Shown here one piece after another: positions 15,233-37,300 of a stretch of 64,000 bases of DNA (its first letter is position 1; each line of letters begins with the position of its first letter). The notes beneath the pieces were generated by a model. The model worked only from the letters and a program-made list of their open reading frames with translations, was not told the origin of the DNA and did not search any database. The translations under genes were made by a program, and so were the position numbers. Source of the stretch: an uncultured Thermoplasmata archaeon. GTDB lineage: Archaea; Thermoplasmatota; Thermoplasmata; RBG-16-68-12. The stretch lies in contig CAVYJM010000011.1 of the NCBI GenBank assembly GCA_963768855.1, positions 192,001 to 256,000 of the forward strand. Reading direction: 5' to 3'.

Positions 15233-15307
15233 GCTCCCGTAGTCTAGTCCGGTCAAGGATCGGGGCCTTTCGAGCCTCAGACGCGGGTTCGAATCCCGCC
15301 GGGAGCA
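15233..15307 (+). tRNA. tRNA-Glu(TTC)
   Basis: Acceptor GCTCCCG/CGGGAGC, anticodon arm GGGGC-CTTTCGA-GCCTC, T-arm GCGGG-TTCGAAT-CCCGC. Confidence 0.95.
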
Positions 15308-15377
15308 TGATATTTTTTAGCACGGTGATGCACCGGTAGCATCATGTGTTGGTCAGTGACGAGCTATCTACTGGGGG

Positions 15378-15433
15378 ATAGCGCGATCTTCACTGCGCCG
15401 TCGCTCCGCCGAGCGGCCCGAAGGGCTATGCCG
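15378..15433 (+). repeat. Hairpin repeat copy 1
   Basis: CCGTCG-ctccgc-CGAGCGG-cccGAAGGGCTATGCCG; outer pairs CTTC/GAAG and ATAGC/GCTAT. Confidence 0.8.
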
Positions 15434-15512
15434 AGATGGCAAGTCGGGAAGCTTCGCGAATGGCCAAGGTCCTTCTAAGGGTCCGCCTTGGGCGGGAGCA
15501 GGCGCATCCAGC

Positions 15513-16271
15513 ATGGTCTCCGTGGTGATCGATTCCCGGTTCCAGGGGCTCAAGGACATCGCCCTCGGCGGCTACGTCGGCGGCGTCCTGGCGGGCGGAC
15601 GGGCCGCGGAGGTCCGCTTCCTGCGACCCGCGCCGGTCGGACGCCCGTTGCAGGTCGGGGACCGCGCGGACGGAACTACGGCTCTCTTGGACGGGAAGAA
15701 TCTCTTGGCCCTCGCACAGCCTGCGGACGTGGATCTAGACGTGCCCGCGCCGGTCACGGCGGAGGAGGCTGCGGCGGCCACCCAAAGCTACCCCGGGCTC
15801 GATCGCCACCTCATCCCGGCCTGTTTCGTCTGCGGCCCCGGACGGCGTGAAGGCGACGGCCTGCGAATCTTCCCTGGCCCCGTGCCGGAGCGTGACCTTG
15901 TCGCCGCGCTGTGGACGCCGGATGTCTCCCTGGGCGGCCCAGATGGATGCGTCGCTCCCGAGTTCGTCTGGTCCGCCGTGGACTGCCCGAGCATCTGGGC
16001 TCTGGTTCACCGAGCGCCGCCCGACTCCAAGGAGCGGGTCGTGACCGCTCGCCTCGCCCTCCGGCCCGTGGCGCCGCTCCGCGTGGGCGAGTCCTGCGTG
16101 GTGACGGGATGGGCCGTCGGCGGAGACGCCCGGTTCCAGGTAGCCGGCGCGGCCGTGCGTTCAGCGGAAGGTCGTCTCCTCGCCGTGGCGCGGCACACCC
16201 TCGCGTCGACGGACTGGGGCGTGCCGCTCGGCCTTGACAAGTGGGGGACCGATTCGCGCCAACCCGCGTGA
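15513..16271 (+). CDS. Double hotdog-fold (thioesterase-like) protein
   Basis: FQG....GGYVGG, LRPAPVG, CFVCGP, VWSAVDCP, VTARL. Confidence 0.7.
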   Translation: MVSVVIDSRFQGLKDIALGGYVGGVLAGGRAAEVRFLRPAPVGRPLQVGDRADGTTALLDGKNLLALAQPADVDLDVPAPVTAEEAAAATQSYPGLDRHLIPACFVCGPGRREGDGLRIFPGPVPERDLVAALWTPDVSLGGPDGCVAPEFVWSAVDCPSIWALVHRAPPDSKERVVTARLALRPVAPLRVGESCVVTGWAVGGDARFQVAGAAVRSAEGRLLAVARHTLASTDWGVPLGLDKWGTDSRQPA

Positions 16272-16381
16272 GAGTGCCTCCGCTTCCACGCTGTATGCCG
16301 CCCTGCTCCTCGTCGCCTCCCGGAGAAGAGCGCGAGTTGCTCGAGCGGGAGTCCAGCTATTCCTTCTGGATGCGCTGCGCG

Positions 16382-17362
16382 TCACCTCAAATGCTTCTGC
16401 AGGAACTCACGCTGCCGCTGGCTCGCCCGGTCAAAGACCGGACTTGGATGGTGGAGAAGGCCGAAATGACCTCCCTCCACCTCCACGAGTTCCTTGGGTC
16501 CCGAGGCCCGGTCGAAGGTCATCCGGGAGATGACGTCGCTTGCCCCGGGCATCTCGTCCCCCGGGGCGACCATCACGAGGAGGGGGACCTCGAGATGAGG
16601 GGTGCAGAGGGCGGGGTGCAGCGGGACCGACACAGCGGGGCCGCCGACAGTCGCCCAGTTTTCCCATCGGGTGCCGAAGCGGCCTCCGTACTCGATGAAC
16701 CATCGGAACGCCGTCAGCGGGGTGAGGAGCGAGGGAGCCCTGTGCTGGTCCGCGGAGACTACAGGCAGTGGGCCGGTCGTGGTCTCGGGCATGGTACGCA
16801 GGTCCCCGTGGAGGAGGGTCCCCTTAAGAGCTGCGAACAGCGAGCCGTTCGCGTCGGCGGGAGGCGGACCATCCCCGCAGGCGGGCACCTGCGCAACCAC
16901 CGCCTTCACACGAGCGTCGAAAGCCCCGACGACAAGAACCTCCGCGCCGCTCATGCTGTCGCCCCAGAGGGCGACCCGGTGGATGTCCACATCCTGTCTC
17001 TTGGCCAGGAAGTCGAGGGCATCGCGGTAGCCGCGAGCCTGCACCCACTTGTTGAGCTCCTGCCGTGGCTCGCCGCCGCTGATTCCGAGGTTGCGGTGGT
17101 CGTAGAGCAAAACCGCGAAGCCTGCCCGGTGGAAGACATCCGCGTAGGCATCGGCGACCATGCCCTGGATCGTTGCGGAGAAGCCGTGGGCCATGATGAC
17201 CGCGGGCGCGGACTCAGTCGCTCCCGCAGGGACATACAGCCTACCTCGCAGGGTCGCGCCTTGCGAGGGGAACTCGACTGCCTGGAACGCTGATTCCTGC
17301 GTCGGTCCTGGCGTCGGAGTCGTCCGATTTGGATGTGTCTCTCGCGGCGTCCTGCCTTTCAT
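16382..17362 (-). CDS. Alpha/beta hydrolase
   Basis: MAHGFSAT, YDHRNLGISGGEPR, WGDSMSG nucleophile elbow, GGHF; ATG overlaps the upstream stop. Confidence 0.85.
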   Translation of the reverse strand: MKGRTPRETHPNRTTPTPGPTQESAFQAVEFPSQGATLRGRLYVPAGATESAPAVIMAHGFSATIQGMVADAYADVFHRAGFAVLLYDHRNLGISGGEPRQELNKWVQARGYRDALDFLAKRQDVDIHRVALWGDSMSGAEVLVVGAFDARVKAVVAQVPACGDGPPPADANGSLFAALKGTLLHGDLRTMPETTTGPLPVVSADQHRAPSLLTPLTAFRWFIEYGGRFGTRWENWATVGGPAVSVPLHPALCTPHLEVPLLVMVAPGDEMPGASDVISRMTFDRASGPKELVEVEGGHFGLLHHPSPVFDRASQRQREFLQKHLR

Positions 17363-17814
17363 TCCAGCGCGCCTTCCCGGAGCTCCCAGAGGGCGTTGAC
17401 GATCAACCACCGCCTCTCCCCGAACTTGGCAAGATGAAGGTAGTCCACATACTGAGGCGAGACGCATCGGGCCGTGGCGACGTGGCGGAAGACATGGAGA
17501 ACATCAATCTGGTAGCCTCGCTGGGACGCGGGGACCTCGGTGCCGCCTCCCTGCCGAGTCGCCTCGACCATACCGTCGAAGGTGCTGGGACGCCTCAACT
17601 GCCAGGTCCCAGGCTCAGCGCCCGGGACGATTGTTCGCTTCACGAGATCCGGATGGAGGCAGCGGCGCATGCGTTCAGGGTCACCGTCGTACCACCCTCC
17701 GACGTAGTCCCGGATGGACTCAACGATGGAATCGTAGTCTTCCTGGGCCGGGAGCCAGTTTCCGCTCTCGGTGGACTTCTTCAGGTCATCGCCCCCCCGT
17801 TGAGAGGGCGGCAT
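17359..17814 (-). CDS. NTF2/SnoaL-like (lumazine-binding family) protein
   Basis: IRDYVGGWYDGDPERMRRCLHPDL, YVDYLHLAK..RWLIVNALW. Confidence 0.8.
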   Translation of the reverse strand: MPPSQRGGDDLKKSTESGNWLPAQEDYDSIVESIRDYVGGWYDGDPERMRRCLHPDLVKRTIVPGAEPGTWQLRRPSTFDGMVEATRQGGGTEVPASQRGYQIDVLHVFRHVATARCVSPQYVDYLHLAKFGERRWLIVNALWELREGALE

Positions 17815-18060
17815 ATTGTTCGGCCTTAACTCTTTTCCTCTTTAGCGTGGAAGGGGAAAGTGCCCGCACTTGCGGGTGGCTACCGGCACTGGCCGCATCG
17901 CGAGCAGTGCCACCGGCCGTTTTGCGGAATCTGGGCGAGGGATTGACCGCAAAGACTACAGCACGGCGGCCCGGTCCAAGGACCCTCAACCGTAGGACCG
18001 ATTCCCACCGGATGATCAGCGGGGATCGCTCGATACACGCGTGAGGCCACCTTTCGGTCC

Positions 18061-18145
18061 CGAGGAAGGTGTCCTGCCTCCGTCGCCCCCTCGCGGCCGG
18101 AAGGGCTTTGCCCGATGAGGTTCGAAGCCACATGACTTCGAACCA
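18061..18145 (+). repeat. Hairpin repeat copy 2 plus 11-6-11 palindrome
   Basis: GAGGAAGGTG..CCGTCG..GCGGCCGGAAGGGCTTTGCC, then AGGTTCGAAGC-CACATG-ACTTCGAACCA (18118-18145). Confidence 0.85.
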
Positions 18146-18194
18146 CTGTGGAAATGAAGGCCCGACGGAGAGCCATCGGACCTCTTGGGCCAGG

Positions 18195-18450
18195 TTACGT
18201 GCGTGCAGGCACTGGGATAGCTGGTTGGATTCCCGCGAGCATTCTGTCAACGACTTCCTGGAAGTCACGCAGGGAGCGTAGCTCGCCGGCTTCCATGGCG
18301 CGACGGCCATAGGCCTCCATGAGCTCCGTGTCACGCCCCACGAGGATTGCTTCGGCCTCCGGAAGGAGTTCCTCCTCGAGCTTGATGTGCTCGCGCTGCA
18401 TCGTCAGGTACGTGTGCGCGGCCTCGAGGAAGGCTCTGCCCGCGGATGGG
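18195..18450 (-). pseudogene. C-terminal fragment of a hemerythrin-like protein
   Basis: FLEAAHTYLTMQREHIKLEEELLPEAE resembles HI..E hemerythrin helices; upstream part is low-complexity. Confidence 0.5.
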
Positions 18451-18647
18451 TCCGTTGACCCGAGCCCGAGTCCGTCGCCCACCTTGGGCGTGTCTCCCTC
18501 GCTCCCTGCCCTTGGACGGTCTGTGGGAGCCCGCGGTGCGCCCCAGCCGAGCGTCTCGCATGACCCTCCCTTGAGGTTCTCCGAAAATTGCAACCCGGGT
18601 TTCGAAACCTTCTTAAACGCCGCGCGTCGCTACCACTCGGAAGGCCG

Positions 18648-19208
18648 ATGTCATTCGAAACGGAGGACTGTCAGCACCTCGTCGCGGACGCGGGAGCCAT
18701 CCTGGATCGGGACGGCGTGACGGAGGCGAGCTTGAGGGCCGTCGGCTCGCGGATGCAGCGTATCGCGGGCGCCTTCGAACCTCGCACGGTCGCGGGCCTC
18801 AAAGCCCTTCACGGGACGGGGTCCTCGTCCACGGTCCTCCACAGCGAATCCGTGGACGGGCTCACCCTCGCTCTATCCCGATTCCCCCCAGAGGCCGCGA
18901 CCCCGGTCCACAACCACGGGACGTGGGGCGTCGCCCTCGTGATCGAAGGCAGGGACCACCACATCCACTGGCGCCGGATGGATGACGGCTTGACCCCCGG
19001 GCGCGCCAGGCTCGAGATCGATGCCGACGAGATCGTCCCGGGGGGCGAGTTCGTCTCCTGGCTCGGGCCGCCGGGAGACATCCACAGTCAGCAGGGCGTC
19101 TCGGGGCCGGTGTACGAGCTCGTCCTCTTTGGCCGTAACGTGATGGTCCATCCCCGCCTGTATTTCGACCCCGCCGCGGGGACGGTCCGCGAGCGCTTGC
19201 CCCAATGA
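18648..19208 (+). CDS. Cysteine-dioxygenase-like cupin
   Basis: TPVHNHGTWGV, PPGDIH; TTCTTAAA box about 30 bp upstream suggests a leaderless transcript. Confidence 0.8.
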   Translation: MSFETEDCQHLVADAGAILDRDGVTEASLRAVGSRMQRIAGAFEPRTVAGLKALHGTGSSSTVLHSESVDGLTLALSRFPPEAATPVHNHGTWGVALVIEGRDHHIHWRRMDDGLTPGRARLEIDADEIVPGGEFVSWLGPPGDIHSQQGVSGPVYELVLFGRNVMVHPRLYFDPAAGTVRERLPQ

Positions 19209-19215
19209 CGGGGGG

Positions 19216-19257
19216 CCCCGCCCCCTCGCTCCCGAGCGGCCGGAAGGTTCGTATCCC
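19216..19257 (+). repeat. Hairpin repeat copy 3
   Basis: CCCCGCCCCCTCGCTCCCGAGCGGCCGGAAGG, 8 bp after the cupin stop. Confidence 0.85.
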
Positions 19258-19271
19258 CTGCGGATGATACT

Positions 19272-19607
19272 ATGTCGGAGCGGGTGCGTGTGAGAACCCC
19301 CCAGAAGGTGGGTGTGCTCGGCATCGTGCTGATTGTCGTAGGGGCATCCTTCACGGTTCTCCTTCCGTGGAGCGGGACGACGCTCAGCGGTGCCTCGTAC
19401 CCCGTAGGAGTCGCCTTCTTCGCGCTCGGCGGAGCCCTGTTCTTCGTCGGTGTTATCTGGGCATGGGTGGTCGGGTTTGCGAACGCCACACGGGCATGGG
19501 ATACGGTTCGACGGCCGCTGTTTTGCCCCGCGTGCGGCCAGCGGTATCCGGAGGAGCAGGGACACACCTGCCCGAAGGATGGCTCGGAACTGAGACCCGT
19601 GGCGTAG
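19272..19607 (+). CDS. Two-TM membrane protein with C-terminal zinc ribbon
   Basis: Two hydrophobic helices; CPACG...TCPKDGSEL. Confidence 0.75.
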   Translation: MSERVRVRTPQKVGVLGIVLIVVGASFTVLLPWSGTTLSGASYPVGVAFFALGGALFFVGVIWAWVVGFANATRAWDTVRRPLFCPACGQRYPEEQGHTCPKDGSELRPVA

Positions 19608-19613
19608 GTGACT

Positions 19614-19637
19614 CCGAGTCGGCCGGAAGAGCTACGC
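19614..19637 (+). repeat. Truncated hairpin repeat copy 4
   Basis: CCGAGTCGGCCGGAAGAGCTACGC, 6 bp after the stop. Confidence 0.6.
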
Positions 19638-20384
19638 ATTGCAACCCTTTGGGCATCGCCAAGACCCGTCGCCACCATCGTGCTCGTCGAGGGACTCGAT
19701 GTCCGGGAGCCACGCCTGACCGCATTTTCGACATTGGACGATGATGCGCTGGGAACCAACGATGTCCACGACTTCGAAGAAGGCGGAAGCAGGCGGCCTC
19801 ACGCCTGAACGAAGAAAGAACCGCGGATAAGGTCTTGCAGCCGGGGGGGCGGATATGAGGAAAGGGCCGAGGTCCGCAATGGACCCCGGCGTGCAGGGGA
19901 ACAGGGCGTCGGCTAACGAAGCACGAGGAGCGTCTCGATAGCATTCTGCTAAATTGCCCGGCTCAGGCCTATCATCCCGAGCATAGTGTCAAAGTTCAAT
20001 CCTCGCTGATTGAAGTCCCTGGCACATCGTTTTCTCTCCATATGGAAGGCAACTCGCTATGGGTCCGGACGGACCTGTTCTCTCCATTAAGTCAGTCTAA
20101 GGGGAAAGTGAGGCGACCGGGGGTGCCCAATCGCCTCATGCGGGGACAGTAGACCAGACGACGAATCTCGCCTCCACGCGCTGATTGATTCCGGTTTGAA
20201 GGATTGACCACGAATCCGCACGACGGCGCTCCACCCATACGCCCGGTGCAGATTTGGCCTGTACCTGTCGTCAAGGTACCGACTAGACTCCCGTGGCACC
20301 TTTCCCCTTCATGCTGCGCCCTCGCGGGCGCGGCCCCTTCCGGGGCAAACAACGACTAAGTGCCGGGAGCTGCATCTCGCCAGC

Positions 20385-20579
20385 ATGGCTCTCAAGATGA
20401 GCGCGACGGGGATCATTGAGGTGTTCGTCTTTCTTGGCGTGGCAACCGTCGCCCTACTGCTGGTTGGGGTCGCGTCGAGCATGGAACAAGTCTTTCTTCT
20501 CGGCATTGGAGTTCTAATCCTAACTGGCATCATGGCCGGGGTTGTGGTCCTCTACAGGGCGCTCTCCAGCCCGGAGTAG
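20385..20579 (+). CDS. Small two-TM protein
   Basis: 64-aa hydrophobic ORF. Confidence 0.5.
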   Translation: MALKMSATGIIEVFVFLGVATVALLLVGVASSMEQVFLLGIGVLILTGIMAGVVVLYRALSSPE

Positions 20580-20597
20580 GCGGTCTCGAGCACGGGC

Positions 20598-20951
20598 ATG
20601 CTCGTGTTCGCCGCGATGTCGGGCTCGAGACCTCGGCTGCGGCGGTGGGGAGCCCTCCTCGGCCTCTTGGCCTTCGTCCTCGCACTCGTTGCGCTCCTCT
20701 ACGTCCTGGTGCTGCTCCCAGGAGCCGCGACTCAAGACATCGGGGCTCCCGCCATTCTGTACTCGGGCTTCTGGGGTTCCGGAGACTACTCATTCATGCA
20801 TGGAGGTGCAACCGTCACCTGGGGAGCAGGATGGGCCTGGTACGCGCTCATGGCCGCGGCCGTCCTGTCTCTGATTGGCGTCATCGTCCTGTTCCGCGCG
20901 CGGGCACCATCCTCCATGCAGGCCGCTCCGCAGGCAACACAGCAGCCGTAG
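20598..20951 (+). CDS. Small membrane protein
   Basis: TM segments around TWGAGWAWY; Gln-rich tail. Confidence 0.6.
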   Translation: MLVFAAMSGSRPRLRRWGALLGLLAFVLALVALLYVLVLLPGAATQDIGAPAILYSGFWGSGDYSFMHGGATVTWGAGWAWYALMAAAVLSLIGVIVLFRARAPSSMQAAPQATQQP

Positions 20952-20955
20952 TCCA

Positions 20956-21041
20956 GAGGAGAGTGCCCCCGCCCCGTCGTCCCCCGAGCGGCCGGAAGGG
21001 CTATGCCTCGAAGAGGTTCGAAGTCACATGGATTCGAACCC
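20956..21041 (+). repeat. Hairpin repeat copy 5 plus 11-6-11 palindrome
   Basis: GAGGAGAGTGCCCCCGCCCCGTCG..CCGAGCGGCCGGAAGGGCTATGCC, then AGGTTCGAAGT-CACATG-GATTCGAACCC (21014-21041). Confidence 0.88.
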
Positions 21042-21130
21042 GCCGGGTCACGGTCCCCTCTAGGCTGGGGGAGGACCCTCGGGCCTGCCTCCGCTACAGT
21101 TAAGCGGGGACATCCCTTGGGCCGGCCCTG

Positions 21131-21967
21131 GTGACGCCCATGGTTCCGAGGACCGCGGGGGATGCCTCTCAGCTCTGGACCGCCTTCCGCCACCAGTCTC
21201 TCTTCTACTTGCGGACGAACCGGTTCCTCGGGCTCCTCGCTGTGACTGTCGCCTTGGCCGCCGTTTTCCTTGCTTTTGAGCTGTATGCCGGGACCGCCTC
21301 GGTTTTGGCGACGAACCCGACAGCTTCCTCCTATCTCGCAGGGTCCCTTGGAAGCGTGGGGTTCAGCGTGGCCCTCACCGCCGCGTTCTTCGGAGGCGAT
21401 GCGATCGCGAGGGACTTCGGGAGCGCCACGGGGTACTATGTCCTCGTCCTTCCCGTGCGTCGGAGGGTCCTGCTCCTGGGACGGTACCTCGCAGCCTCCC
21501 TGGTCTCGTTCGGGGTCTTGCTCTCCTACTACGCCATCGCGGCGGCGGGCACCTGGTACTTCTACGGGGGCCTCCCCATGACCCTGGCGGCCTCCCTCGG
21601 ACTCGGGGCGCTTCTCACCCTCGCGACCGTGGCCTTCGCGTTCTTCCTGAGCTCCCTCTTTCGGAACCCGTCCGTGAGCATGATCGTGACCGTCCTCCTC
21701 CTCTGGATCGCCCTGCCTACCATTACCAGCGCTGTTGGCGAATTCGGCGGCATCGAGCCTTGGCCGTCTTTGTCCTACGGCAGTAATGTCGTCACCTTGG
21801 TCTTCGCAGGGAGCTACGCTCACGACTCCCTCATGACGATTGGCCCCCTAACGTTCCATGTCTTCCAGCCCTACATCTGGGAGGGGATCGCCATCATGAT
21901 CGCGTACCTCGTGATTTTCCTCGCAATCGCGGGCCTCCTGTACCGTTACAAGGAGGTCCGCGGATGA
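21131..21967 (+). CDS. ABC-2 type transporter permease
   Basis: Six TM segments; GGDAIARDF..TGYY..VLPVRR..LLLGRY. Confidence 0.85.
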   Translation: MTPMVPRTAGDASQLWTAFRHQSLFYLRTNRFLGLLAVTVALAAVFLAFELYAGTASVLATNPTASSYLAGSLGSVGFSVALTAAFFGGDAIARDFGSATGYYVLVLPVRRRVLLLGRYLAASLVSFGVLLSYYAIAAAGTWYFYGGLPMTLAASLGLGALLTLATVAFAFFLSSLFRNPSVSMIVTVLLLWIALPTITSAVGEFGGIEPWPSLSYGSNVVTLVFAGSYAHDSLMTIGPLTFHVFQPYIWEGIAIMIAYLVIFLAIAGLLYRYKEVRG

Positions 21968-22902
21968 CGTCGGGACCGAGCCTCGAAGCGGCCGACCTCA
22001 GCAAGGCCTACGCCCGCGTACTCGCGCTCGACGGCGTGTCGTTCCGGTACGAGGGGCCGGGGGCGATTGGCTACCTCGGGCCCAACGGCGCGGGCAAGAC
22101 GACGACCCTCAAGCTGTTCACGAGCCTCCTCCGGCCGACTCGCGGGCGGGCGTTCGTTGACGGCATCGACGTTGCGAAGAATCCGAAGGCGGCCCTCGCG
22201 GATGTGGGCGCATTGATTGAAACCCCCGAGCCCTACCCACGTCAGAGCGTGGAGGAGGCCCTGCGGATGGTGGGGGAGTTCCGGGGCATACCAGCTGAGG
22301 AACTCCGGGAGCAGATTGGGAAGTACGTCGAGGCTTTGGATCTTCCGCCCCTCGACGCTCGGATTGGCAGCCTCTCGAAAGGCCAGAAGCAGAGGGTCGT
22401 CTTCGCGGCGACGCTCCTCGGGGACCCACGACTGCTCCTCCTCGACGAGCCGACGAACGGCCTCGACCCGGCGGAACGGGTCCGGGTACGCGAGGTGCTG
22501 CGGGACCTCAAGAAGGACCGCCTCATCTTCATGAGCTCCCATCTGCTCCAAGAGGTCACGGAGGTCTGCGACCGCGTGATGTTCCTGAACCGGGGCAAGG
22601 TCCTCCTCGAGGACTCTGTCGCTCACTTGGCGGATCGGTTCAAGGCGACGCGGGTTGATGTGGAATTCAGTGCTCCGGTCGCCATGAATCGCCTCAGCCC
22701 GCTGCAAGGCCTAGCCCTAGGGGTCATGGCCCTCTCGGACCGCCGGCTGCGGATCGAGTTCGACGGATCCACGGAAACCCGCACGAAAATCCTCGTCGCG
22801 TGCCAGGCCGTCGGCGCCGTCGTCTCCTTCAGCAGCGCCGGCCTCGCGCTTGAGGATGCGTACCTCCAGCTGCTTCAGGGTTCAGCCAACGGCGGCCGTT
22901 AG
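21964..22902 (+). CDS. ABC transporter ATP-binding protein
   Basis: GPNGAGKTT, LSKGQKQR, LLLDEPTNGLDP, SSHLL. Confidence 0.92.
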   Translation: MTSGPSLEAADLSKAYARVLALDGVSFRYEGPGAIGYLGPNGAGKTTTLKLFTSLLRPTRGRAFVDGIDVAKNPKAALADVGALIETPEPYPRQSVEEALRMVGEFRGIPAEELREQIGKYVEALDLPPLDARIGSLSKGQKQRVVFAATLLGDPRLLLLDEPTNGLDPAERVRVREVLRDLKKDRLIFMSSHLLQEVTEVCDRVMFLNRGKVLLEDSVAHLADRFKATRVDVEFSAPVAMNRLSPLQGLALGVMALSDRRLRIEFDGSTETRTKILVACQAVGAVVSFSSAGLALEDAYLQLLQGSANGGR

Positions 22903-22961
22903 CCCCAGCAGGCAACCCACCGGGCGGGCCGCTCCAAACGCAACCCAGCAGCTGTAGCCAA

Positions 22962-23049
22962 GAGGGAAGGTGCCCTCGCCCCGTTCGCCCCCGAGCGGCC
23001 GGAAGGGCATTATCCCCGGTGAAGTGCGAAATCACATGGAATCGAACCC
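22962..23049 (+). repeat. Hairpin repeat copy 6 plus degenerate 11-6-11 palindrome
   Basis: GAGGGAAGGTGCCCTCGCCCCGTTCG..CCGAGCGGCCGGAAGGGC, then AAGTGCGAAAT-CACATG-GAATCGAACCC (23022-23049). Confidence 0.85.
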
Positions 23050-23186
23050 ACGAGTTCGCTACTGATGTGTCAAGGGCGTCTTCGATGGCCGCCCACGCTA
23101 CTCCGACCTGAATCGGATGGCTCACGAGGTGCTAGCCGAACCTCGTGACGACGACCGCGACGGCAATCCAGAGGACGGCCGCTTTG

Positions 23187-24173: not shown

Positions 24174-24261
24174 GGGTCCCCTCCAAGAGGGCCTTGATCC
24201 GACCATCTTTCCATGTAGTTCTAAAATCTATCCCACGAGTTTGCCGGACCTAACCACCCAA

Positions 24262-24500
24262 GTTCTGTTGGGGCGGGGTCTCGCCCGCAGCCCCGGGTGG
24301 AAACCCCGAAGGAGCCGCCGAACGCCGTGAATCCTGCGGAGGGCGGGAACTCCGGCACCGGGAATTGCCTGCGCTCCCGAGGAACTCCGGAGGTCTCGGG
24401 TGGGGAACACAGTCTCGGATTCGCTATCGGGAATCCGGCGAGAGGCGCTAAGAGTGCGATTCCCACATACTCCGAGCGTCCGGTGGGAAACCGGCACACA
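24262..24500 (+). other. Highly structured GC-rich leader upstream of the Hsp20 gene (candidate ncRNA)
   Basis: Hairpins GGGCG/CGCCC, GGGT-GGAA-ACCC, CCCGAG/CTCGGG, GGATTC/GAATCC, CCGGT-GGGAA-ACCGG. Confidence 0.35.
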
Positions 24501-24526
24501 CGACAGAAGAGAAGGGAGGGAAGACA

Positions 24527-29334: not shown

Positions 29335-29446
29335 GGAATCCGGCAGTCAGAAGAAGGGTCGCGTATTCAAATGTGTGTAGCGGCTTTCCCGCCAGGCCCG
29401 CACAGTCTCGGGAGACTAGCGGCGCGAGCGTTCCTTGGGTGACAAG

Positions 29447-31138
29447 ATGGCCGACAAGCCGATGGGATCCGTCGTCTTCGTGCTCCACACTCATCTTCCC
29501 TGGGTCCTGGGCCATGGTCGGTGGCCCCACGGGGAATCGTGGCTCTACGAGGCCGCCGCGGAATGCTACGTGCCGCTCCTGCGGATGCTCGACCGTCTTT
29601 CGAACGAGACACCCGACGTCCGCCTGACGTTCGGCATCACGCCCGTGCTCACGGAGAGCCTGGCCTCCCCGAGGTTCCGAGACGGCTTCCTGGCGTACCT
29701 CGAGGAACGGCAGGGCCAGGCCGAGAGGGACCGCGAGGACTTCCGAGCGCAAGGGGACGCGCCCGCGGGACGCCAGGCCGTCGCGTGGTCCGCGTTCTAT
29801 CGGACGATCCGGACCCATTTCGAGGGACCGCTCGGGAGCGATCTCCTTGGGGGATTCCGCCGCCTTCAGGATTCGGGCCTCATCGAGATCATCACCTCCG
29901 CCGCGACCCATGGATACCTGCCGCTCTTGGGCCGCGACGAATCCGTGGCCGCGCAGATTCAATGCGGCATCTCCTCCTACCGCCGGCATTTCGGGCGTGA
30001 CCCGCGGGGGGTGTGGCTCCCCGAATGCGCGTACCGGCCTCGCGGTCCCTGGTCGAGGCCGGTCGGACCAGCGCGGTCTTGGACTCGGCCCGGCCTGGAA
30101 GACGTGCTCGCCCGTCACCACTTGCGGTACTTCTTCGTGGACACGCATCTCGTGGCCGGCGGCGTCCCTCTCGGCACGTACGACGATCGCTTCGAGGAGA
30201 GGCGCCTCGACGCGACGGCTCCCGCCCGAGGGTCCTCGCCCAACGAGGCGCACGCCCTCCTGGCGGACGGCGGCCGTCAGCGCGTCGCCGTCCTCGCCCG
30301 CGACCCAGGCACCAGCGTCCAGGTCTGGAGCGCGGACTACGGCTACCCGGGCGACGGGGCGTATCTCGAGTTCCACCGGAAGAAGAGACCCGGTGGGCTG
30401 CGCTACTGGCGGATCACGGATCGGCGCCTGCCGCTCGAGGCAAAGCTTCCTTACGAGCCCGAGGATGCGGAGGCTCGGGTGCGGGCCCACGCGGAACATT
30501 TCACGGGGCTCGTGCGGCAGACCCTGGCGGACCACCGGGAGCGCACGGGACGCTCGGGGGTCGTCGTCGCGCCCTTCGACACGGAGCTCTTCGGGCACTG
30601 GTGGTTCGAGGGCCCCGCGTGGCTCGAGGCCGTCCTCCGTGACTTGCGAGGCGACCTCGACACCCGGACCGCCTCCGAGTATCTCGAGCACCATCCCCCG
30701 AGGTCCGTCGTCAGCCTCCCAGAGGGTTCCTGGGGACAGGGGGGCCACCACTGGGTATGGTTGAACGATGGGACCCGCTGGGTGTGGGAGCTGATCTACC
30801 GTGCGGAGGATGCGTTCGCGGAGGCTCTGGGTTCTGGCGGCGACGCGCCCGATGCCTTGAGCGAGCGGATCCTGAGGCAGCTCGCTCGGGAGCTGCTCCT
30901 CCTCGAGTCCTCGGATTGGCCCTTCCTCATCACCACGGTGGCAGCCCACGATTACGCCGAGGCGCGAGCGCGGCTTCACTTCGAGACGTTCGAATGGCTC
31001 CTGCGCATGTCGAGACGCACCGCAGAGGGTCCGATCTCCTCCGAGGACCTCGCTCGGCTTTCGCAGCTCGAGGAGCGAGACTCCCTCTTCCCCGAGATCG
31101 ACCTGCGGTGGTGGGCGGGGGAGCCCGCGAGCCCATGA
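29447..31138 (+). CDS. GH57 1,4-alpha-glucan branching enzyme
   Basis: LHTHLPWV, ATHGYLPLL, WLPECAY, PFDTELFGHWWFEGP, PEGSWG, SSDWPF. Confidence 0.9.
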   Translation: MADKPMGSVVFVLHTHLPWVLGHGRWPHGESWLYEAAAECYVPLLRMLDRLSNETPDVRLTFGITPVLTESLASPRFRDGFLAYLEERQGQAERDREDFRAQGDAPAGRQAVAWSAFYRTIRTHFEGPLGSDLLGGFRRLQDSGLIEIITSAATHGYLPLLGRDESVAAQIQCGISSYRRHFGRDPRGVWLPECAYRPRGPWSRPVGPARSWTRPGLEDVLARHHLRYFFVDTHLVAGGVPLGTYDDRFEERRLDATAPARGSSPNEAHALLADGGRQRVAVLARDPGTSVQVWSADYGYPGDGAYLEFHRKKRPGGLRYWRITDRRLPLEAKLPYEPEDAEARVRAHAEHFTGLVRQTLADHRERTGRSGVVVAPFDTELFGHWWFEGPAWLEAVLRDLRGDLDTRTASEYLEHHPPRSVVSLPEGSWGQGGHHWVWLNDGTRWVWELIYRAEDAFAEALGSGGDAPDALSERILRQLARELLLLESSDWPFLITTVAAHDYAEARARLHFETFEWLLRMSRRTAEGPISSEDLARLSQLEERDSLFPEIDLRWWAGEPASP

Positions 31139-32898
31139 CGACAATCTCGTTTCACTTCCATGGCTACCAGCCTGGGGACATCGTCCGATGGCGGGAGCCC
31201 GATCCCCTGAGGCCCCAATCCTGGGAGGAGCGCGTTTCGCCGGTGTCCCATGCAGTGGGAGCCGACCGCTTCTCCGGACGCAACTGGACGGATGCGGTGC
31301 TCCAGACGTACGGCCGGCTCCAGACGGTCCTGGACCGGGCCGCGGGAGCGGCGTCGGTCGACATCGAGCCACAGACCCTCGTGTGGCTCCTCCAGCGCGA
31401 CCCGGACGCCTTCCACCGGGTCCGCGCCTCCTTCGAGCGCGGGTCGGCGTCCTTGGCGCTCACGCCTCCGTTCCACCCCATCCTCCCGCACCTCCATCGG
31501 TTCGAGCGAGAGGTCTTGTTCGACCTGATGATTGATTTCCATGCGCCGCTCCTCCGTAGGCGCCCCGAGGCCCCCACGGGCCTCTGGCTGCCGGAGGCCG
31601 CGTTCTCGCGTGAAACGATCGAGGACTACCTACGTGTGGCGCGGGCAGCCTCCATCGGACAGGAAGGCCTCTCGGACTTGTTGCACGCGGTGCACCTCCT
31701 CTTGGACGCGCGGCAGTTCTCCGACCCGGGCAAGGCCGCCAGCGCCTGGGCGGCGGTGGACGGCACGCCGGGGATCGCTGCAGTGGGGCGGGACCATCCC
31801 CTCAGCTCAGAATTCGCTTTCGGCCCAACGGGGGCCCCTGACTTCTGTCGTGCGGCTCTGGCCCGAGGGAACGGGCACGTCTTCATCGCGAGCGATCTGG
31901 AGTCCCTCCTCGCGAATCCGGCCCAGGCGGAGCGTTTCGAGACCATCGTGCAGGCGCTGCGTGCGCAGGGAGCGGAGGTCCGTGCACCCCGGCCCCCTTC
32001 GGGGCTGGAAGTCGTCCGTGTGGTCGAGTTCTCAAGCTGGTCCGACTACGACGAGTACCTGCAGGCGGGGCACACCTCGGACACCCGCTGGACTGGGTTG
32101 CTTCGCCAGGGCGGACTCGTCGTCCCGCGGATGCACCGCGGCCGGCGGATGTCCCAGCTGTGGAAGCACGCCTTCACCCTCGCCTCGGAGCGCATCGAGA
32201 CCGTCGTGCGGCGCGCCGGGCAGAAGGTCCTCACGGAGAAGGGCGTCGCGAAGCCGCGGGAGACGCTGCGTCATCTGTCGGTGGCCTACGGCCGGCACCT
32301 CTTCCGACCGTATTATCTGGCCTGTGGGACGTCCGGTGCGGAACTTGACGTGGAGGCGGCGATGAGCGCGATCCTCGGAGGCCGGGTGGATCTCGAGCTC
32401 GCGGGCTACGTGGCACGCGGCTACCTCTTCATGCTCATGGGCCTCCGCTCAGACCCTCGCTTCTGGGACAATCCCGACACGCGGGTGACCTTCCAGAACG
32501 TCGCGTGCCTCGCACACTCCCTCGTGGACATGGCCGAGGCGTGCCGCCGTGCAGGGGATGATGCGACCGCCACGCGCCTCCTCCGGCTCCTGCGGGCGGC
32601 CCTGATTGAGTTCGCCGAGGGGTTCGCGCGGTGGGGCTTTGGGGACCTGCAAGGCCTCGAAGGCTGGGAGACCACGGAGGAAGCGTGGTTCGAGTCTCTC
32701 CAGTCCGAGGTCCCGGACCGTTCGGGCTACGACGTAGTGAAGCGTGCAACGCTCTTCGCCGTCGGAGAGCGCCTTCCCCGGAGCATCGACATTCCCACGC
32801 CCCGTGCGGAGGCGGTGGTCGCGGACACAGGACATATCGCGGGGGAGGCCCACGGCCAGTGGGAGAACCCTGCGTGGTGCGAGCATCGGTCGTCCTGA
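31135..32898 (+). CDS. Divergent GH57-family glycoside hydrolase/transferase
   Basis: Recognisable GH57 regions HFHGYQP, FHPILPHL, GLWLPE, ASDLE, SSWS; C-terminal half unrecognised. Confidence 0.7.
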   Translation: MTTISFHFHGYQPGDIVRWREPDPLRPQSWEERVSPVSHAVGADRFSGRNWTDAVLQTYGRLQTVLDRAAGAASVDIEPQTLVWLLQRDPDAFHRVRASFERGSASLALTPPFHPILPHLHRFEREVLFDLMIDFHAPLLRRRPEAPTGLWLPEAAFSRETIEDYLRVARAASIGQEGLSDLLHAVHLLLDARQFSDPGKAASAWAAVDGTPGIAAVGRDHPLSSEFAFGPTGAPDFCRAALARGNGHVFIASDLESLLANPAQAERFETIVQALRAQGAEVRAPRPPSGLEVVRVVEFSSWSDYDEYLQAGHTSDTRWTGLLRQGGLVVPRMHRGRRMSQLWKHAFTLASERIETVVRRAGQKVLTEKGVAKPRETLRHLSVAYGRHLFRPYYLACGTSGAELDVEAAMSAILGGRVDLELAGYVARGYLFMLMGLRSDPRFWDNPDTRVTFQNVACLAHSLVDMAEACRRAGDDATATRLLRLLRAALIEFAEGFARWGFGDLQGLEGWETTEEAWFESLQSEVPDRSGYDVVKRATLFAVGERLPRSIDIPTPRAEAVVADTGHIAGEAHGQWENPAWCEHRSS

Positions 32899-32968
32899 AG
32901 GAGGGGGTGAGACCGCGAACCTGGCGCACCGGAATCTTCATCGGCGCTCAGCCGGCTTACGTCCTGGG

Positions 32969-34114
32969 ATGAAGGCCACCGTCCTCACCTGGGAATACCC
33001 GCCCAACATCTACGGCGGGGCCGGCGTCCATGCGAAATACATCACGGCTTCCCTGGCGAAGCTCATCGACGTAGAGGTACGGACGATCGAGGAGGGGCCG
33101 CCGCCAAACATCCCCGGCGTGCGCGTGCGACGCTACCGCCCGACCCTCCGTGGACTGGGGTCCCCCGACCCGCGGATTGCGAAGGCCCTCGAGATCTTCT
33201 CCCTCAACGCGAACATGGTGGCGGACCCGATTGATGCCGATGTGGTCCACACCCACACCTGGTATACGAACTTCGCGGGTGCCCTCGCCAAGCGCATCTA
33301 CGGCTGCCGACTCGTGGCCACCGTCCATTCCCTCGAGCCCTTGCGGCCCTGGAAGCGAGAGCAGCTCGGGGCGGGCTACGAACTGAGCTCGTGGATGGAG
33401 AAGGAAGGTCTCGAGGCGTGTGACGCCGTCGTGGCCGTGTCCCGGGAGATGAAACGGGACATCCTGAAGTGCTACGACATCCCCGCCTCTCGAGTCGCCG
33501 TGATTCACAACGGCGTCGATCCGCAGAAATACCACCCGCAGGATGGGAGCAGGACCGTCTCGAATTTCGGGATCCGGACGCCCTTCGTCTTGTTCGTCGG
33601 CAGGCTCTCCCGGCAGAAGGGGGTGTTCGACCTCCTGGAAGCCATGCACAGCGTGCCCGAGGATACGACCCTGGTCCTCGTGACCGGGAAGCCCGACACC
33701 CCCGCGATCGAGGAGGAGGTCCGGCGCGCCCTCTCGGGCGTGGGGCACGTGACCTGGATTCCGGAAATGCTCCAGGATCCCGATCTCGTGGGTCTTTACA
33801 ACGAGGCCGCCGTTTTCGTCTGTCCCTCGATCTACGAGCCGTTCGGTATCATCAATCTCGAGGCCATGGCGTGCGAGACGCCCGTGGTCGCGACGCGGGT
33901 GGGCGGCATCAAGGAGGTCGTCGTCGACAAGGAGACGGGGTTCCTCGTCCCTCCTGGAGACCCCGTGAAGCTCGGACGCGCGATCACGAGGTTGCTCGAA
34001 GACCCCCCGCTCGCCGCCCGAATGGGGAAGGAAGGCCGACGCCGCGTCCTGGAACACTTCACCTGGGACCGGATTGCGGCGAAGACCCTCGAGCTGTACC
34101 GGTCGCTGACGTGA
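32969..34114 (+). CDS. glgM: GT4 GlgM-like alpha-maltose-1-phosphate synthase (actinobacterial glgA type)
   Basis: LTWEYPPNIYGGAGVH, HSHTWY-like HTHTWY, HSLEPLRPWKREQLGAGY, PSIYEPFGIINLEAMAC. Confidence 0.85.
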   Translation: MKATVLTWEYPPNIYGGAGVHAKYITASLAKLIDVEVRTIEEGPPPNIPGVRVRRYRPTLRGLGSPDPRIAKALEIFSLNANMVADPIDADVVHTHTWYTNFAGALAKRIYGCRLVATVHSLEPLRPWKREQLGAGYELSSWMEKEGLEACDAVVAVSREMKRDILKCYDIPASRVAVIHNGVDPQKYHPQDGSRTVSNFGIRTPFVLFVGRLSRQKGVFDLLEAMHSVPEDTTLVLVTGKPDTPAIEEEVRRALSGVGHVTWIPEMLQDPDLVGLYNEAAVFVCPSIYEPFGIINLEAMACETPVVATRVGGIKEVVVDKETGFLVPPGDPVKLGRAITRLLEDPPLAARMGKEGRRRVLEHFTWDRIAAKTLELYRSLT

Positions 34115-35670
34115 TGCCGCCTCGGTTCGAGGACGCGGTGGGTATCCTCGAAGACGCCGTGCGGCGCTCGGCCGCCTTCCGTGTGTGGCTCCGTTCCCGC
34201 CGGTGGTGTGGCGAGACCGTCGGGATGCGCTCGGAACTGGTCGTGCGGGACTCCGCCCTGCTCGCTGCGTCGGGCACCGAGATGTTGGTGCTCATCCTCG
34301 TTCTCGCGAGGGAAGGCCCGTCCTCGGTCCTGCTCCATCTCCCGCTCTCGGTGGCTACCGCGCGGCTCGATCCCGAGGCCTTCGAGCTGTCGAGCGGAGC
34401 CGAGCGGTGGTACGTTGTGGAGGCGGAGCGGCGAGAGAGCTATGCGCGGTTCCTCACGGAGGGCCTGCGAAGGGGACTCCGGCTCCCCACGCGCGCGGGG
34501 GACAGCCTCCACTTTCGAGGGGAATCCGTCGGCGCCTTCCAATCCTTCGAGCCCGGGACCGAACGCGACAGCTCGAACCTCCTCGTCCATGTGGCCACCG
34601 CGGGCCTGGAGGTCGTGTTCAAGAGTTACAAGATCCTCGACCCCCAGAACCGGGAGCCTCGGATCCTGGAGCGTCTTCGCCGGCGAGGCTTCGCCCAAAC
34701 GCCGCGTTTCCTCGGCGAGGTCTCTCTGGGGCAAGGGGAGGCGCGCCTCGTCCTCGGGGTGGCGACGCAGAAGGTCGAGGCGGAGGATTTGTTCGCCTAT
34801 CTCGCCGGACGCTGGCGGGAGGAACTGGGACGGTCATCCCCGGTGCCAACCGACCTCGACCAGGTCACGCTGAGCCTTGCGGACGGGCTAGGCGAGGCGA
34901 CCGCGGCCCTCCACGACATCTTGGTTGATCGCAAGCCGGGCCCCTTCCAGGCGGAGCCCTTCACGCGGGAAGACGCCCAGGCGGCGTATCGCATCGCGGC
35001 ACGGAATCTCACGGATTCAGCCCGGCTCCTCGCGCGCCGGCACCAGGAGGGACGCGGGCTCCCGTCGGATCTGGCCTCCGAGTGCCGGGAGCTCCTCCTC
35101 GACCATCGGAAGGAGATCGAAGGGGTGCTTGGCTCTCTGGAAGCCTCTGTCGGCACGGTGAAGACCGTGACCCACGCGGACCTCCACCTCGGTCAGGTGC
35201 TTCGCTCGCGACAGGACGGATCCCTTTTCTACATCGACTTCGAAGGCGAGCCGGAGCGGTTGCCTGGCCAGCGCTCCGTGAGACTGCCGCCGCTCCGGGA
35301 TGTAGCCACGATGGCCCGTTCCTTCGCGTACGTGAAACACGGCGCATGGCGCGACTGCCTGGGGGGAGACCCTCGCGCCGCGTTGAAGGCCATGCGCCCG
35401 CACGATCTCTCCCCCGGACTGCGGGAGGTGCTGGGGCGACTGCAAGCATGGGAAGACGCCGCGGTCCGGCGTTTCTCGGGGCGATACCTCGCCCGCACCA
35501 GCCTGTATCCCGAGATCGACCAGGCCATGGCCCAGCGCATCATTTGGGGCTGGACGATGGAGAAAGCCCTCTACGAGCTCCGTTACGAGCTGAAGCACCG
35601 GCCCGCGAACTTCCTCATCCCGGTCGAAGGGATTCTGTCTCTCGCAGCCCCGCAGGTTCAATCACACTGA
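34114..35670 (+). CDS. Maltokinase (Mak/Pep2-like)
   Basis: SSNLLV, FKSYK, THADLHLGQVL, IDFEGEP, LRDVATMARSF, KALYELRYEL. Confidence 0.85.
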   Translation: MPPRFEDAVGILEDAVRRSAAFRVWLRSRRWCGETVGMRSELVVRDSALLAASGTEMLVLILVLAREGPSSVLLHLPLSVATARLDPEAFELSSGAERWYVVEAERRESYARFLTEGLRRGLRLPTRAGDSLHFRGESVGAFQSFEPGTERDSSNLLVHVATAGLEVVFKSYKILDPQNREPRILERLRRRGFAQTPRFLGEVSLGQGEARLVLGVATQKVEAEDLFAYLAGRWREELGRSSPVPTDLDQVTLSLADGLGEATAALHDILVDRKPGPFQAEPFTREDAQAAYRIAARNLTDSARLLARRHQEGRGLPSDLASECRELLLDHRKEIEGVLGSLEASVGTVKTVTHADLHLGQVLRSRQDGSLFYIDFEGEPERLPGQRSVRLPPLRDVATMARSFAYVKHGAWRDCLGGDPRAALKAMRPHDLSPGLREVLGRLQAWEDAAVRRFSGRYLARTSLYPEIDQAMAQRIIWGWTMEKALYELRYELKHRPANFLIPVEGILSLAAPQVQSH

Positions 35671-35943
35671 GCTGGCGGGCGGTTCGAGTGGTCTTCCTTC
35701 CGACCCGGCGGCTCGCCCGTGCGTGCATCGAGGACGAGGTCGTTCGCCTGCGCAAGAGTATCACCGAACCCATCCGCCCGCTCATGATTGAGCAGGTCCG
35801 GGAGGGGATGGAAGGGGTTCGCATTCGTCGATTCCCGTCCCTGATGCGCGCCCGAAGTGCGGCTTCAAGTCTCAGGATGAGGCCATGCAACCTGCACACA
35901 TTTTGGAGAGCCAATCGGGATTGGGTCTTGGAGTGCCCACTCA

Positions 35944-36105
35944 CCGCCGGGAGCACTCTCACACGAGGTCCTTTTTCCGGTAGCAGATAGGAAGGACCGC
36001 GGTAGCAGCCTCACACTAGATCGATTGTCCGGCAGCAGAGGGGCCCGGGGGCTATCCCGCCTCCACCCCGTTCCCCCTCGCTCTGAGCGGTCGGCAGGGC
36101 TTTGC
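35944..36105 (+). repeat. tRNA-Glu 3'-end copy plus arm (direct repeat with 25486-25645), ending in hairpin copy 9
   Basis: See the 25486 copy; ends GAGCGGTCGGCAGGGCTTTGCC. Confidence 0.88.
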
Positions 36106-36177
36106 CGGGACGGGTTCCGAGCGGCATGTGCGAAATCTTTGAATCCCCGCAGGTCGATGTCAGTCCGAGGTGGAGAG

Positions 36178-36651
36178 ATGCGGAAGGATGTCCTCGGAAT
36201 CGTCCTGATGCTTCTCGGCGCGGGCTACCTCATCGGAGCTGCGCTCAGCGTGGTTGGAAACACAGCTTTGGGCAATCCTATCCAAGACGGGTTCCTCTTC
36301 GAGTTGCTGGCGTGGGGGTTGGGCGGAGCCGCGGTGTTGGTTGTGGGACTCGTCGTGCTCCTTCGGAGTCTCCGGCGTCCCGTATCCCCGCAACCTCAAC
36401 CGATGCCGAGGATGGTCGGTCCGCCGTCGATGAACGAGTACAGGACTCCGTGGTCGGCGATTGCGTTCCTCCTCGTGCTCTTGCTCCTTGCCGCCCTGTA
36501 TCTGGTGTTGGTTTTCGTGTCCGCCGGGATAGCTGGGGTGTTGCTCCAGTTTGTCTTCTTCCTCCCCATCATCGCCGTCCTCCTCGTCCTTGCCCGCTGG
36601 TGGTCGAGGTTGGCGAGTCCCTGGAACGAACCTCCGACCTCCCTCCGGTGA
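36178..36651 (+). CDS. Four-TM membrane protein
   Basis: Hydrophobic segments; ATG after GAGGTGGAG. Confidence 0.7.
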   Translation: MRKDVLGIVLMLLGAGYLIGAALSVVGNTALGNPIQDGFLFELLAWGLGGAAVLVVGLVVLLRSLRRPVSPQPQPMPRMVGPPSMNEYRTPWSAIAFLLVLLLLAALYLVLVFVSAGIAGVLLQFVFFLPIIAVLLVLARWWSRLASPWNEPPTSLR

Positions 36652-36658
36652 GGTGCGC

Positions 36659-37084
36659 ATGGAACCAAGGATTCCGTCTTGGCTTGCCCAAATTGTCAGC
36701 TTGGTCCTCATGCTCGTGGGATTCGGTCCCATGGCCGCCGGGGTCCTGTACCAAGTGATTTCCGGGGGTCCTCCCAACTTCGCCTTCTACCTGCCCTATG
36801 CTTCTGCCTTCGTCGCTGGGCTGGTCGTCTTGTTCTGGGACCGTCAGAGGCAACCGTCGGAACCGCATTCGACCGGGACGGCGTCAAGGGTCCTCTACTC
36901 CCGGATGACACTGGCCTTTCTCGGTCTTCTCGTCGTCGCTCTCGCCGTCGCTGTCGTATGGTCAACTGAACTTCAGGGGAGCATCGTATGGTACTTGCTC
37001 TCGGTGTTCGTAACCGCCGGGTTGTGGGGCTCCCTGTTCAGCGGGTGGGGCTGCTACAAGGCCGGCGGCCGTCTCCGCGCGTAG
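36659..37084 (+). CDS. Four-TM membrane protein
   Basis: Hydrophobic segments; ATG after GAGGTG. Confidence 0.7.
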   Translation: MEPRIPSWLAQIVSLVLMLVGFGPMAAGVLYQVISGGPPNFAFYLPYASAFVAGLVVLFWDRQRQPSEPHSTGTASRVLYSRMTLAFLGLLVVALAVAVVWSTELQGSIVWYLLSVFVTAGLWGSLFSGWGCYKAGGRLRA

Positions 37085-37093
37085 AGGTTCTTG

Positions 37094-37140
37094 GCCCCGC
37101 CTCGTTCTCGTGCCCAAGGGTCGGCCAGAAGGACTTGCCG
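37094..37140 (+). repeat. Degenerate hairpin repeat copy 10
   Basis: GCCCCGCCTCGTTCTCG..GGGTCGGCCAGAAGGACTTGCCG, 10 bp after a stop. Confidence 0.55.
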
Positions 37141-37287
37141 CCGGCGAGTCGCCCAAGTTGCCTCTAGAATGCTCGCCAAGTCGCCTAGAAAGCCCTAGAA
37201 TCGGTCCGGACCGAAAAGCCATACCCAGGGGTGGATTTGTATTTCTTCAGCACACCCTTGGGAGCAGAGCCTACCGCTAGTTGGCAC

Positions 37288-37300
37288 CCCGCCGGGAGCA
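37288..37300 (+). repeat. 13-bp copy of the tRNA-Glu 3' end (att-like)
   Basis: CCCGCCGGGAGCA equals tRNA 15295-15307. Confidence 0.7.

Follow-up and report, generated by a model that had tools for sequence, protein, structure and literature searches.

We analysed a 64,000-nt stretch of DNA (hereafter the window; contig CAVYJM010000011.1 of assembly GCA_963768855.1, positions 192,001 to 256,000) from an uncultured soil Thermoplasmata archaeon, in which a tRNA-Glu gene is followed by a tandem array of units separated by copies of the tRNA 3′ end. The tRNA-Glu(UUC) gene lies at 15233-15307 on the forward strand (ARAGORN; Rfam tRNA model, 61.4 bits), and its final 12 nt, CCGCCGGGAGCA, make up core 1 (15296-15307, +), the putative core of the attachment (att) sites attB and attL. 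Exact copies of these 12 nt are found on the same strand at 25486-25497 (core 2), 35944-35955 (core 3) and 37289-37300 (core 4). At core 4 the identity to the tRNA end covers 13 nt, and similarity extends to 26 nt at 81%. Successive cores are spaced 10190, 10458 and 1345 bp apart, which delimits unit 1 (15308-25485, +; 10.2 kb), unit 2 (25498-35943, +; 10.5 kb) and unit 3 (35956-37288, +; 1.3 kb). A variable tail without assigned strand (37301-38847) then runs from the last core to a conserved right flank (38848-44168). An earlier, sequence-only reading of this DNA had described direct repeats of the last 12-13 nt of the tRNA that divide the region into units of about 10.2, 10.5 and 1.3 kb, and had termed the arrangement nested or tandem. 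The repeats, their orientation and the unit sizes were all confirmed, as was the tandem order, but nothing shows nesting.

About 30 open reading frames (ORFs) were annotated with Pfam, PHROGs and NCBIfam. By Pfam, unit 1 carries cargo only, namely an alpha/beta hydrolase, a lumazine-binding-like protein, an ABC-2 permease and ATPase pair, a Zn-dependent dehydrogenase, Hsp20, a 252-aa protein of unknown function and small proteins likewise of unknown function. Its bias in third-position GC content (GC3) is weak, and GC dips to 54% in the patch with the Zn-dependent dehydrogenase. Unit 2 has a host-like GC3 of about 0.9 and begins with a 119-aa zinc-ribbon protein, for which an exact-sequence look-up returned no record, and a gene of about 148 aa. 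Both Pfam and NCBIfam contributed to the annotation of this unit, most of which is an alpha-glucan cluster (26822-35670) that encodes a GalT-like protein, a GT5 glucan synthase, a GH57 branching enzyme, a maltose-forming amylase-like protein, a GT4 protein and a putative maltokinase. Unit 3 holds ORFs of unknown function, none of which has a match in Pfam, PHROG or NCBIfam.

The core is a rare sequence. CCGCCGGGAGCA occurs six times on both strands of the 2.87-Mb genome, and four of these six copies fall inside the 22 kb of the array, where about 0.01-0.02 extra same-strand copies would be expected at the background rate; the 12-mer is therefore rare genome-wide, and only a common one would have spoken against the sequence-only reading. 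Cores 2 and 3 are related by descent: each stands at the head of a 110-nt direct repeat whose two copies agree at 88%. This reduces the number of independent events to two, still far beyond chance. A chance origin of the repeats is ruled out by this count together with their recurrence in relatives, among which the tRNA-Glu gene is 99-100% identical (28 relatives). Genome-wide, the 12-mer is no commoner than a reversed control, and the signal lies in its clustering.

The relatives belong to the same genus of uncultured soil Thermoplasmata; below, their genomes carry the prefix G, metagenome contigs the prefix L, and contigs within a genome the prefix C. The contig with tRNA-Glu was compared in 13 relatives, and 37 relatives were searched for unit content. 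Homologs of the conserved left flank (9838-15190) are syntenic up to the tRNA in all 13, and the content beyond the tRNA is unrelated. Homologs of the right flank lie 5.3-10 kb after the tRNA in G006, G048, G041 and G042, compared with 23.5 kb here. Further direct copies of the 12-mer follow the tRNA in seven of the 13 relatives, with seven copies in 17 kb in G053, five over 29 kb in G003, three each in G049 and G051, and two each in G048, G041 and G007. The contigs of about a dozen species stop shortly past the tRNA. Contigs lacking the tRNA from five more species are array fragments with two or three co-oriented cores, and several such fragments, as well as single-core contigs of further species, are placed 1-4 kb before the right-flank genes. 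The same genes standing contiguously in relatives would have counted against integration; instead, the content of the site differs in every species.

Comparisons between genomes place the breakpoints of this variation at the core. Contig C57 of G020 matches the metagenome contig L141 at 98.7% identity over 6.25 kb, and the match begins precisely at a core, which is preceded by the tRNA itself in L141 and by another cassette in G020. The two contigs represent the occupied and empty forms of a polymorphism at the tRNA-proximal core. A merB-merA cassette of 3.36 kb is shared by G003 (L062/L074, on G003:C5) and G051 (L068, on G051:C31) at 93% identity, exactly from core to core, while the core genes that flank the two arrays reach only 80-86% identity; within the arrays the cassette ranks third in one case and second in the other. 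A 1.2-kb GNAT cassette is 95-98% identical in five contigs, in which it is either adjacent to the tRNA or second, with different right neighbours. Presence and absence with breakpoints at the att core can thus be seen for cassettes of the relatives, and the variable units and the occupied/empty polymorphism bear out the earlier view of tRNA-Glu as an integration hot spot with the 12-mers as att cores.

The DNA abutting the cores sorts into a few families that are common to several species, and the cargo in between differs. To the right of the core, a first family has TCCTAATACGAAGTCGATTTTCCGGTAGCAG and two-unit versions of it, and includes the 110-nt repeat of the array studied here; a second has the tRNA-trailer-like sequence TGCTATTTT..CACGC, and a third CCCACGTGGGTTTACTCC. 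To the left of the core, one family of 80 nt ends in ..GCTTGCCAATAGACCGACTTC and another in ..AACCTAGCGCTAGGCGGCACC; the 31-nt stretch that ends at core 4 matches the latter at 90%. In unit 2 the left arm (25482-25591, +) consists of the core, a T-run and repeated CCGGTAGCAG motifs, arranged as two units of about 52 nt, and has homologs among the left arms of G004, G020, G050 and G051 and of about 30 contigs from soil metagenomes. Its paralog, the left arm of unit 3 (35940-36049, +), is 88% identical. At the other end of unit 3, the right arm (RE-B type) with core 4 (37270-37300, +) is 90% identical over its 31 nt to right-arm-plus-core sites in G051 and G020. Core 2 together with the 8 nt on its left and the 3 nt on its right, 23 nt in all, has an identical counterpart at a core site in G009:C96. 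Exact CCGGTAGCAGAT is restricted in this genome to the left arms of units 2 and 3, and clusters of the shorter motif CGGTAGCA are found only in these arms and at C7:~945.

Unit 3 and the 1.2-kb GNAT acetyltransferase cassette of other soil Thermoplasmata illustrate how little apart from the arms is shared. By blastn their first 45 nt are 84% and their last 41 nt 85% identical, and the interiors are unrelated; similarly, the first cassette of L127 and the mer cassette have arms alone in common. Conserved arms around unrelated cargo are what would be predicted for functional recombination sites. The pattern of a core, 10-35 nt and CCGGTAGCAG retrieved 36 soil metagenome contigs, about 30 of which are arrays of this kind. 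Two patterns were used to look for a free or viral form of the elements, and neither had a match in viral contigs. The ORFs that abut a CCGGTAGCAG arm in L128 and L148 were considered as integrase candidates and rejected, as they encode BNR-repeat proteins. Two side observations concern the arms. Three CGGTAGCA motifs occur within 40 nt at C7:~900-950 (-), at the very start of that contig, and in L121 (WNGG01000689.1, 3491-3586) two exact cores lie 53 nt apart directly after the tRNA; the left arm there consists of the core and about 40 nt repeated in tandem, which amounts to an empty unit.

No recombinase was found in the array (15.3-38.9 kb) by Pfam on the roughly 30 ORFs. A six-frame search with PF00589 gave seven matches genome-wide and none in the window, tblastn with seven integrases at E up to 20 gave none in the window (best E 0.09), and tblastn with a G009 integrase at E up to 1e-3 gave no match in the window either. 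A six-frame search with PF00239 gave one match in the window, beyond tRNA-Val and outside the array. The earlier statement that no recombinase is encoded within 22 kb therefore stands on Pfam, on six-frame searches with both profiles and on tblastn with eight integrases, and the integrase-free status holds only at these sensitivities. The PF00239 match is a serine recombinase (46125-46961, -; Resolvase domain at residues 52-198 of 278) encoded 1.6 kb after tRNA-Val(GAC), and the window has no other recombinase gene. Serine recombinase genes number one or two in each of five relatives checked (5/5), on other contigs. This enzyme was rejected as the one serving the array because there is none in the array, the copies of the relatives lie elsewhere and nothing links them. 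A split integrase of the SSV type (class I) was likewise set aside, with no fragments by tblastn at E up to 20 or by PF00589, searches whose sensitivity is limited for very divergent families. An Xer-exploiting element (IMEX, dif site) does not fit, as it is the 3′ end of tRNA-Glu that is repeated and a XerA-like gene is 165 kb away.

Integrases do occur at this site in relatives. The tRNA-proximal element of G003, 16.5 kb long, has at its far end the gene of a 336-aa tyrosine integrase, which stops about 30 nt short of a core. Two paralogous integrases lie 10-12.6 kb after the tRNA-Glu of G009, which is among the two closest relatives found, and the G003 and G009 families are unrelated by BLAST. 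The tRNA-Glu site is therefore used by at least two families of integrase-bearing elements, and most units are without an integrase. Pfam annotation of 96 GC3-supported array ORFs from relatives and metagenomes found only these two integrase loci; the set came from the fetched array contigs, with L092, L118, L138, L140 and L148 taken whole, and hence includes a few flanking genes. Its cargo comprises MerA/MerB, a P-type ATPase, an O-methyltransferase, a NosD-like protein, GNAT, peroxiredoxin and others. A local integrase profile run over about 775 kb of array loci found none besides that of G003, and missed the divergent G009 pair found by Pfam.

Together, these data show that the locus is a real tandem integration hot spot of a known kind, here without an integrase of its own. 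The explanation we favour, to which we would give a probability of about 70%, is that successive integrase-mediated insertion at the tRNA-Glu core left units that are flanked by att sites and lack an integrase, the recombinase having acted in trans or having been lost. The 3′ end of tRNA-Glu(UUC) would be the chromosomal attachment site, and each integration would duplicate the 12-bp crossover core, giving the order tRNA, unit 1, unit 2, unit 3 and tail with all cores direct. The arms flanking the cores would derive from the attP site of the incoming circle. The T-run of the left arm probably ends the tRNA transcript, the CCGGTAGCAG repeats look like arm-type protein-binding sites, and the right arm is 30-80 nt long. 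The units would be of the cargo-only, cis-mobilizable element (CIME) kind, with stress, transport and redox genes and an alpha-glucan pathway, inserted by an integrase encoded elsewhere and presumably using tyrosine-recombinase catalysis. This integrase may have been supplied in trans by same-site elements such as those in G003 and G009, or may have been lost afterwards. That integrase fragments are lacking and the arms conserved speaks for supply in trans rather than decay unit by unit, though it is no proof.

Several observations weigh against this explanation. A core of 12 bp is short for a tRNA att site. Homologs of the G003-type integrase in this genome adjoin tRNA-Asn and tRNA-Ser and none is at tRNA-Glu, and PF00589 and homolog searches identified no cognate integrase in the genome. 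Units 1 and 2 were not seen core to core in any of the 37 relatives, which gave only scattered short matches. With left arms that are no more than 88% identical, units 2 and 3 are not recent insertions. Finally, the alpha-glucan block has also moved in another way. Glucan synthase is present in 12 of the 37 relatives; in G013 the cluster fills a 9-kb contig that is broken at both ends, and in G009 (C4; L087) the cluster, together with a homolog of 37455-38981, is inserted as a 10.3-kb segment into a multi-copy region, where the site corresponds to C6:150052-150184 of the genome studied here. This segment ends at 26822 and about 38981 and not at cores, from which it follows that the relocation used another mechanism, as part of the history of the island. 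The insert also lacks 35643-37432, with both cores and unit 3, through a non-site-specific deletion of 1.79 kb that fuses the maltokinase ORF to the next gene.

A more far-reaching version, which we put forward only tentatively, is a genus-wide cassette platform at tRNA-Glu, in which a recombinase encoded elsewhere (on a virus, a plasmid or the host chromosome) would insert, reorder and exchange cassettes of 0.7-16 kb between species. Its cassettes would keep only the conserved right arm, the 12-bp core and the left arm, and the whole might be an archaeal, tRNA-anchored functional counterpart of the integron.

The opposite view is that the units are dead relics, complete elements that arrived with their own integrase, later lost the integrase gene by deletion and are now immobile, their arms being alike by descent. 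Integrase loss after integration has been presumed to lie behind integrase-less archaeal elements (PMC8371274), and the divergence of the unit 2 and 3 left arms to 88% and the missing cognate integrase would both fit. Decay of this kind is harder to reconcile with a window that holds no integrase fragment and with only two integrase loci among the 96 array ORFs, the local profile being of limited reach. Nor does it sit well with arms that are better conserved than cargo and enclose unrelated interiors, or with cassettes that are near-identical (95-98%) at different array positions, and we regard it as unlikely.

It is very improbable that the array is an assembly artefact, a contig that joins units of different strains at their common repeats. 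The estimated contamination of the bin is 7.7% and assemblies of the relatives often break at this site; the arms however agree exactly over no more than about 44 nt in a row and the core measures 12 nt, lengths that are short for a false join, and multi-core arrays have been assembled independently in many genomes and metagenomes. Still less credible is an origin of the repeats by segmental duplication or homologous recombination at the locus, which could appeal to the 110 nt and downstream motif shared by cores 2 and 3 and to the left arm being itself a tandem duplication of about 52 nt, but which is largely refuted by units that have nothing but arms in common, by the same arms and core around other cargo in other species, and by between-genome homology blocks whose two limits fall exactly on cores.

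Insertion at the tRNA-Glu core has parallels in several known systems. Tandem integration and integrated elements without an integrase have been documented in archaea (PMC8371274, citing Krupovic et al. 2010, 2019). Those elements resemble the present units in their tRNA-targeted integration of the tyrosine-integrase type, tandem order and integrase-less members. Most of them are recognisable proviruses or plasmids, whereas the units here have no replication or virion genes, can be as small as 0.7-1.3 kb and show conserved arms around unrelated cargo. Accretion of integrative elements and CIMEs at the 3′ ends of tRNA or other genes has been described in streptococci for the ICESt1/ICESt3 family (PMC5704250), where a tandem arises as newcomers integrate into a resident's att site. 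The array shares with these the attL/attR-type repeats at the 3′ end of the target gene, the tandem arrangement and the lack of integration and transfer genes, and so has what defines a CIME, both att sites kept and those genes missing. It differs in being archaeal, in having no known conjugative partner, no tandem integrase-bearing element in this genome and a core of 12 bp, and any descent of its units from decayed larger elements would be hypothetical.

The tycheposons of Prochlorococcus occupy islands in which newcomers push older elements outwards from the island tRNA and partial tRNAs are scattered (10.1101/2020.12.28.424599). They have in common with the present locus hypervariable islands beside tRNAs, partial-tRNA repeats and adaptive cargo, for metal resistance and for nutrient or carbon use. 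In active tycheposons a tyrosine recombinase is accompanied by a replication module, whereas Pfam on the units found neither a recombinase nor a helicase/primase module of that type; the phylum and the integrase families also differ. Integrons share a fixed platform and an ordered, co-oriented array of exchangeable cassettes with conserved recombination sites. Unlike integron cassettes, those here are multi-gene and apparently have their own promoters, and the platform is a tRNA 3′ end. An integron proper was rejected, as no intI adjoins the array (the gene at 14505-15190 encodes a membrane protein, and there is no PF00589 match in the window) and there are no attC-type folded palindromes. Of the features by which Islander recognises islands (PMC4383910), the intact target tRNA and the displaced copy of its 3′ end are present and an integrase inside is absent. 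Within the known kind, the striking features are tiny cassettes with nothing but cargo, arms conserved around unrelated cargo, a core of 12 bp and the scarcity of resident integrases.

The locus shows how an uncultured soil archaeal lineage gains and shuffles accessory functions at one predictable site, including mercury resistance, a metal-pumping ATPase and an acetyltransferase in relatives, and alpha-glucan storage, Hsp20 and an exporter here. The arms and the core provide exact coordinates for finding such cassettes in soil metagenomes, about 30 contigs having come from one pattern, and a defined substrate for tests of archaeal integrases. If the units are indeed served in trans, this would be an archaeal cassette-exchange platform that is invisible to annotation based on integrase genes.

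The sequence-only reading also held that the tRNA and each core are followed within 70-130 bp by a hairpin repeat. The repeat itself is present. A motif with the centre GAGCGGCCGGAAGGGCTATGCC trails each core by 80-120 nt, starting at 15402 (copy 1, 15402-15436, +; repeat search and nhmmer), 25616 (+) and 36076 (+), with a degenerate version near 37385 after core 4. It was ruled out as part of the att site, as it is absent from 460 kb of array loci of the relatives (0 copies) and also occurs inside the units, with further starts at 18078, 19221, 20977, 22980 and 26053 (all +). At least eight copies lie inside units (about nine by repeat search, seven by nhmmer), and the genome has about 28, mostly in other tRNA-linked islands. 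Nor is it a hairpin or RNA element. Seven single copies folded no better than shuffled sequences (z +1.1 to -1.6), RNAalifold on 22 copies gave a stem of 3 bp only, and there was no Rfam match. The motif centre does align with the consensus of the transcription factor B recognition element (BRE) and TATA box of the tRNA promoters in this genome, cGGAAAg-nCTTTATA (GCAAAAGCCTTTATGGG at tRNA-Glu), and several copies have a start codon 27-29 nt downstream of the box (GGCTATGCC), a distance expected for leaderless mRNAs. The distance from the motif to the first ORF varies. We consider it likely, with moderate confidence, that the motif is a species-specific promoter module of the BRE/TATA type for island genes.

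Three palindromes of 9-8-9 form, GGTTCGAAG..CACATG..CTTCGAACC, are found at 18119-18147, 21012-21040 and ~23020-23048, at a fixed distance of about 17-45 nt after the promoter-like box, where they cover the likely start codon. They resemble operators of a single repressor. In one palindrome the right arm, at 21030-21052, is also similar to the T-arm and acceptor end of a tRNA. Noticed by eye, this stretch was considered as an att remnant and dropped as being without support; a search of unit 1 with 46 relatives' site flanks returned no degenerate att remnants at E up to 0.05. To the left of core 2, a non-coding stretch of about 130 nt (25315-25447, +) shares 86% identity with C8:52285-52417 of the same genome and 84-88% with single sites in five or more relatives; it gave no Rfam match and no significant fold.

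On the left, the divergent neighbour of the tRNA is a conserved gene for a multi-pass membrane protein (14505-15190, -), which is no recombinase. On the right, the tail, which accompanies the glucan cluster in G009, carries a class I methyltransferase gene (38134-38955, -), and the conserved flank contains an alpha/beta hydrolase, a saccharopine-dehydrogenase-like gene and two more genes (Pfam and homologs). A 681-aa frame at 38959-41004 (-) was discarded as a spurious antisense ORF of this high-GC region, in which the true genes lie at 38848-39918 (+) and 40021-41208 (+).

A scan of all 40 tRNAs of this genome found 3′-end repeats downstream of tRNA-Arg, -Asn, -Thr and -Asp as well. The loci with these direct repeats are C6:1041397-1070700 (tRNA-Asn), C18:112518 (tRNA-Asp), C6:886913 (tRNA-Arg-TCT) and C6:744520 (tRNA-Thr-CGT), and those of tRNA-Asn and tRNA-Asp have a tyrosine integrase adjacent. 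The promoter-like motif lies about 50 nt after each distal repeat at tRNA-Asn, and about 18 nt past the 3′ end of the gene at tRNA-Thr. Within the window, the region after tRNA-Val(GAC) (44481-64000) is probably another tRNA-anchored island; 12-mer repeats of the tRNA 3′ end lie about 7.0 and 21 kb downstream, and from 48 kb on GC falls to 55-61%.

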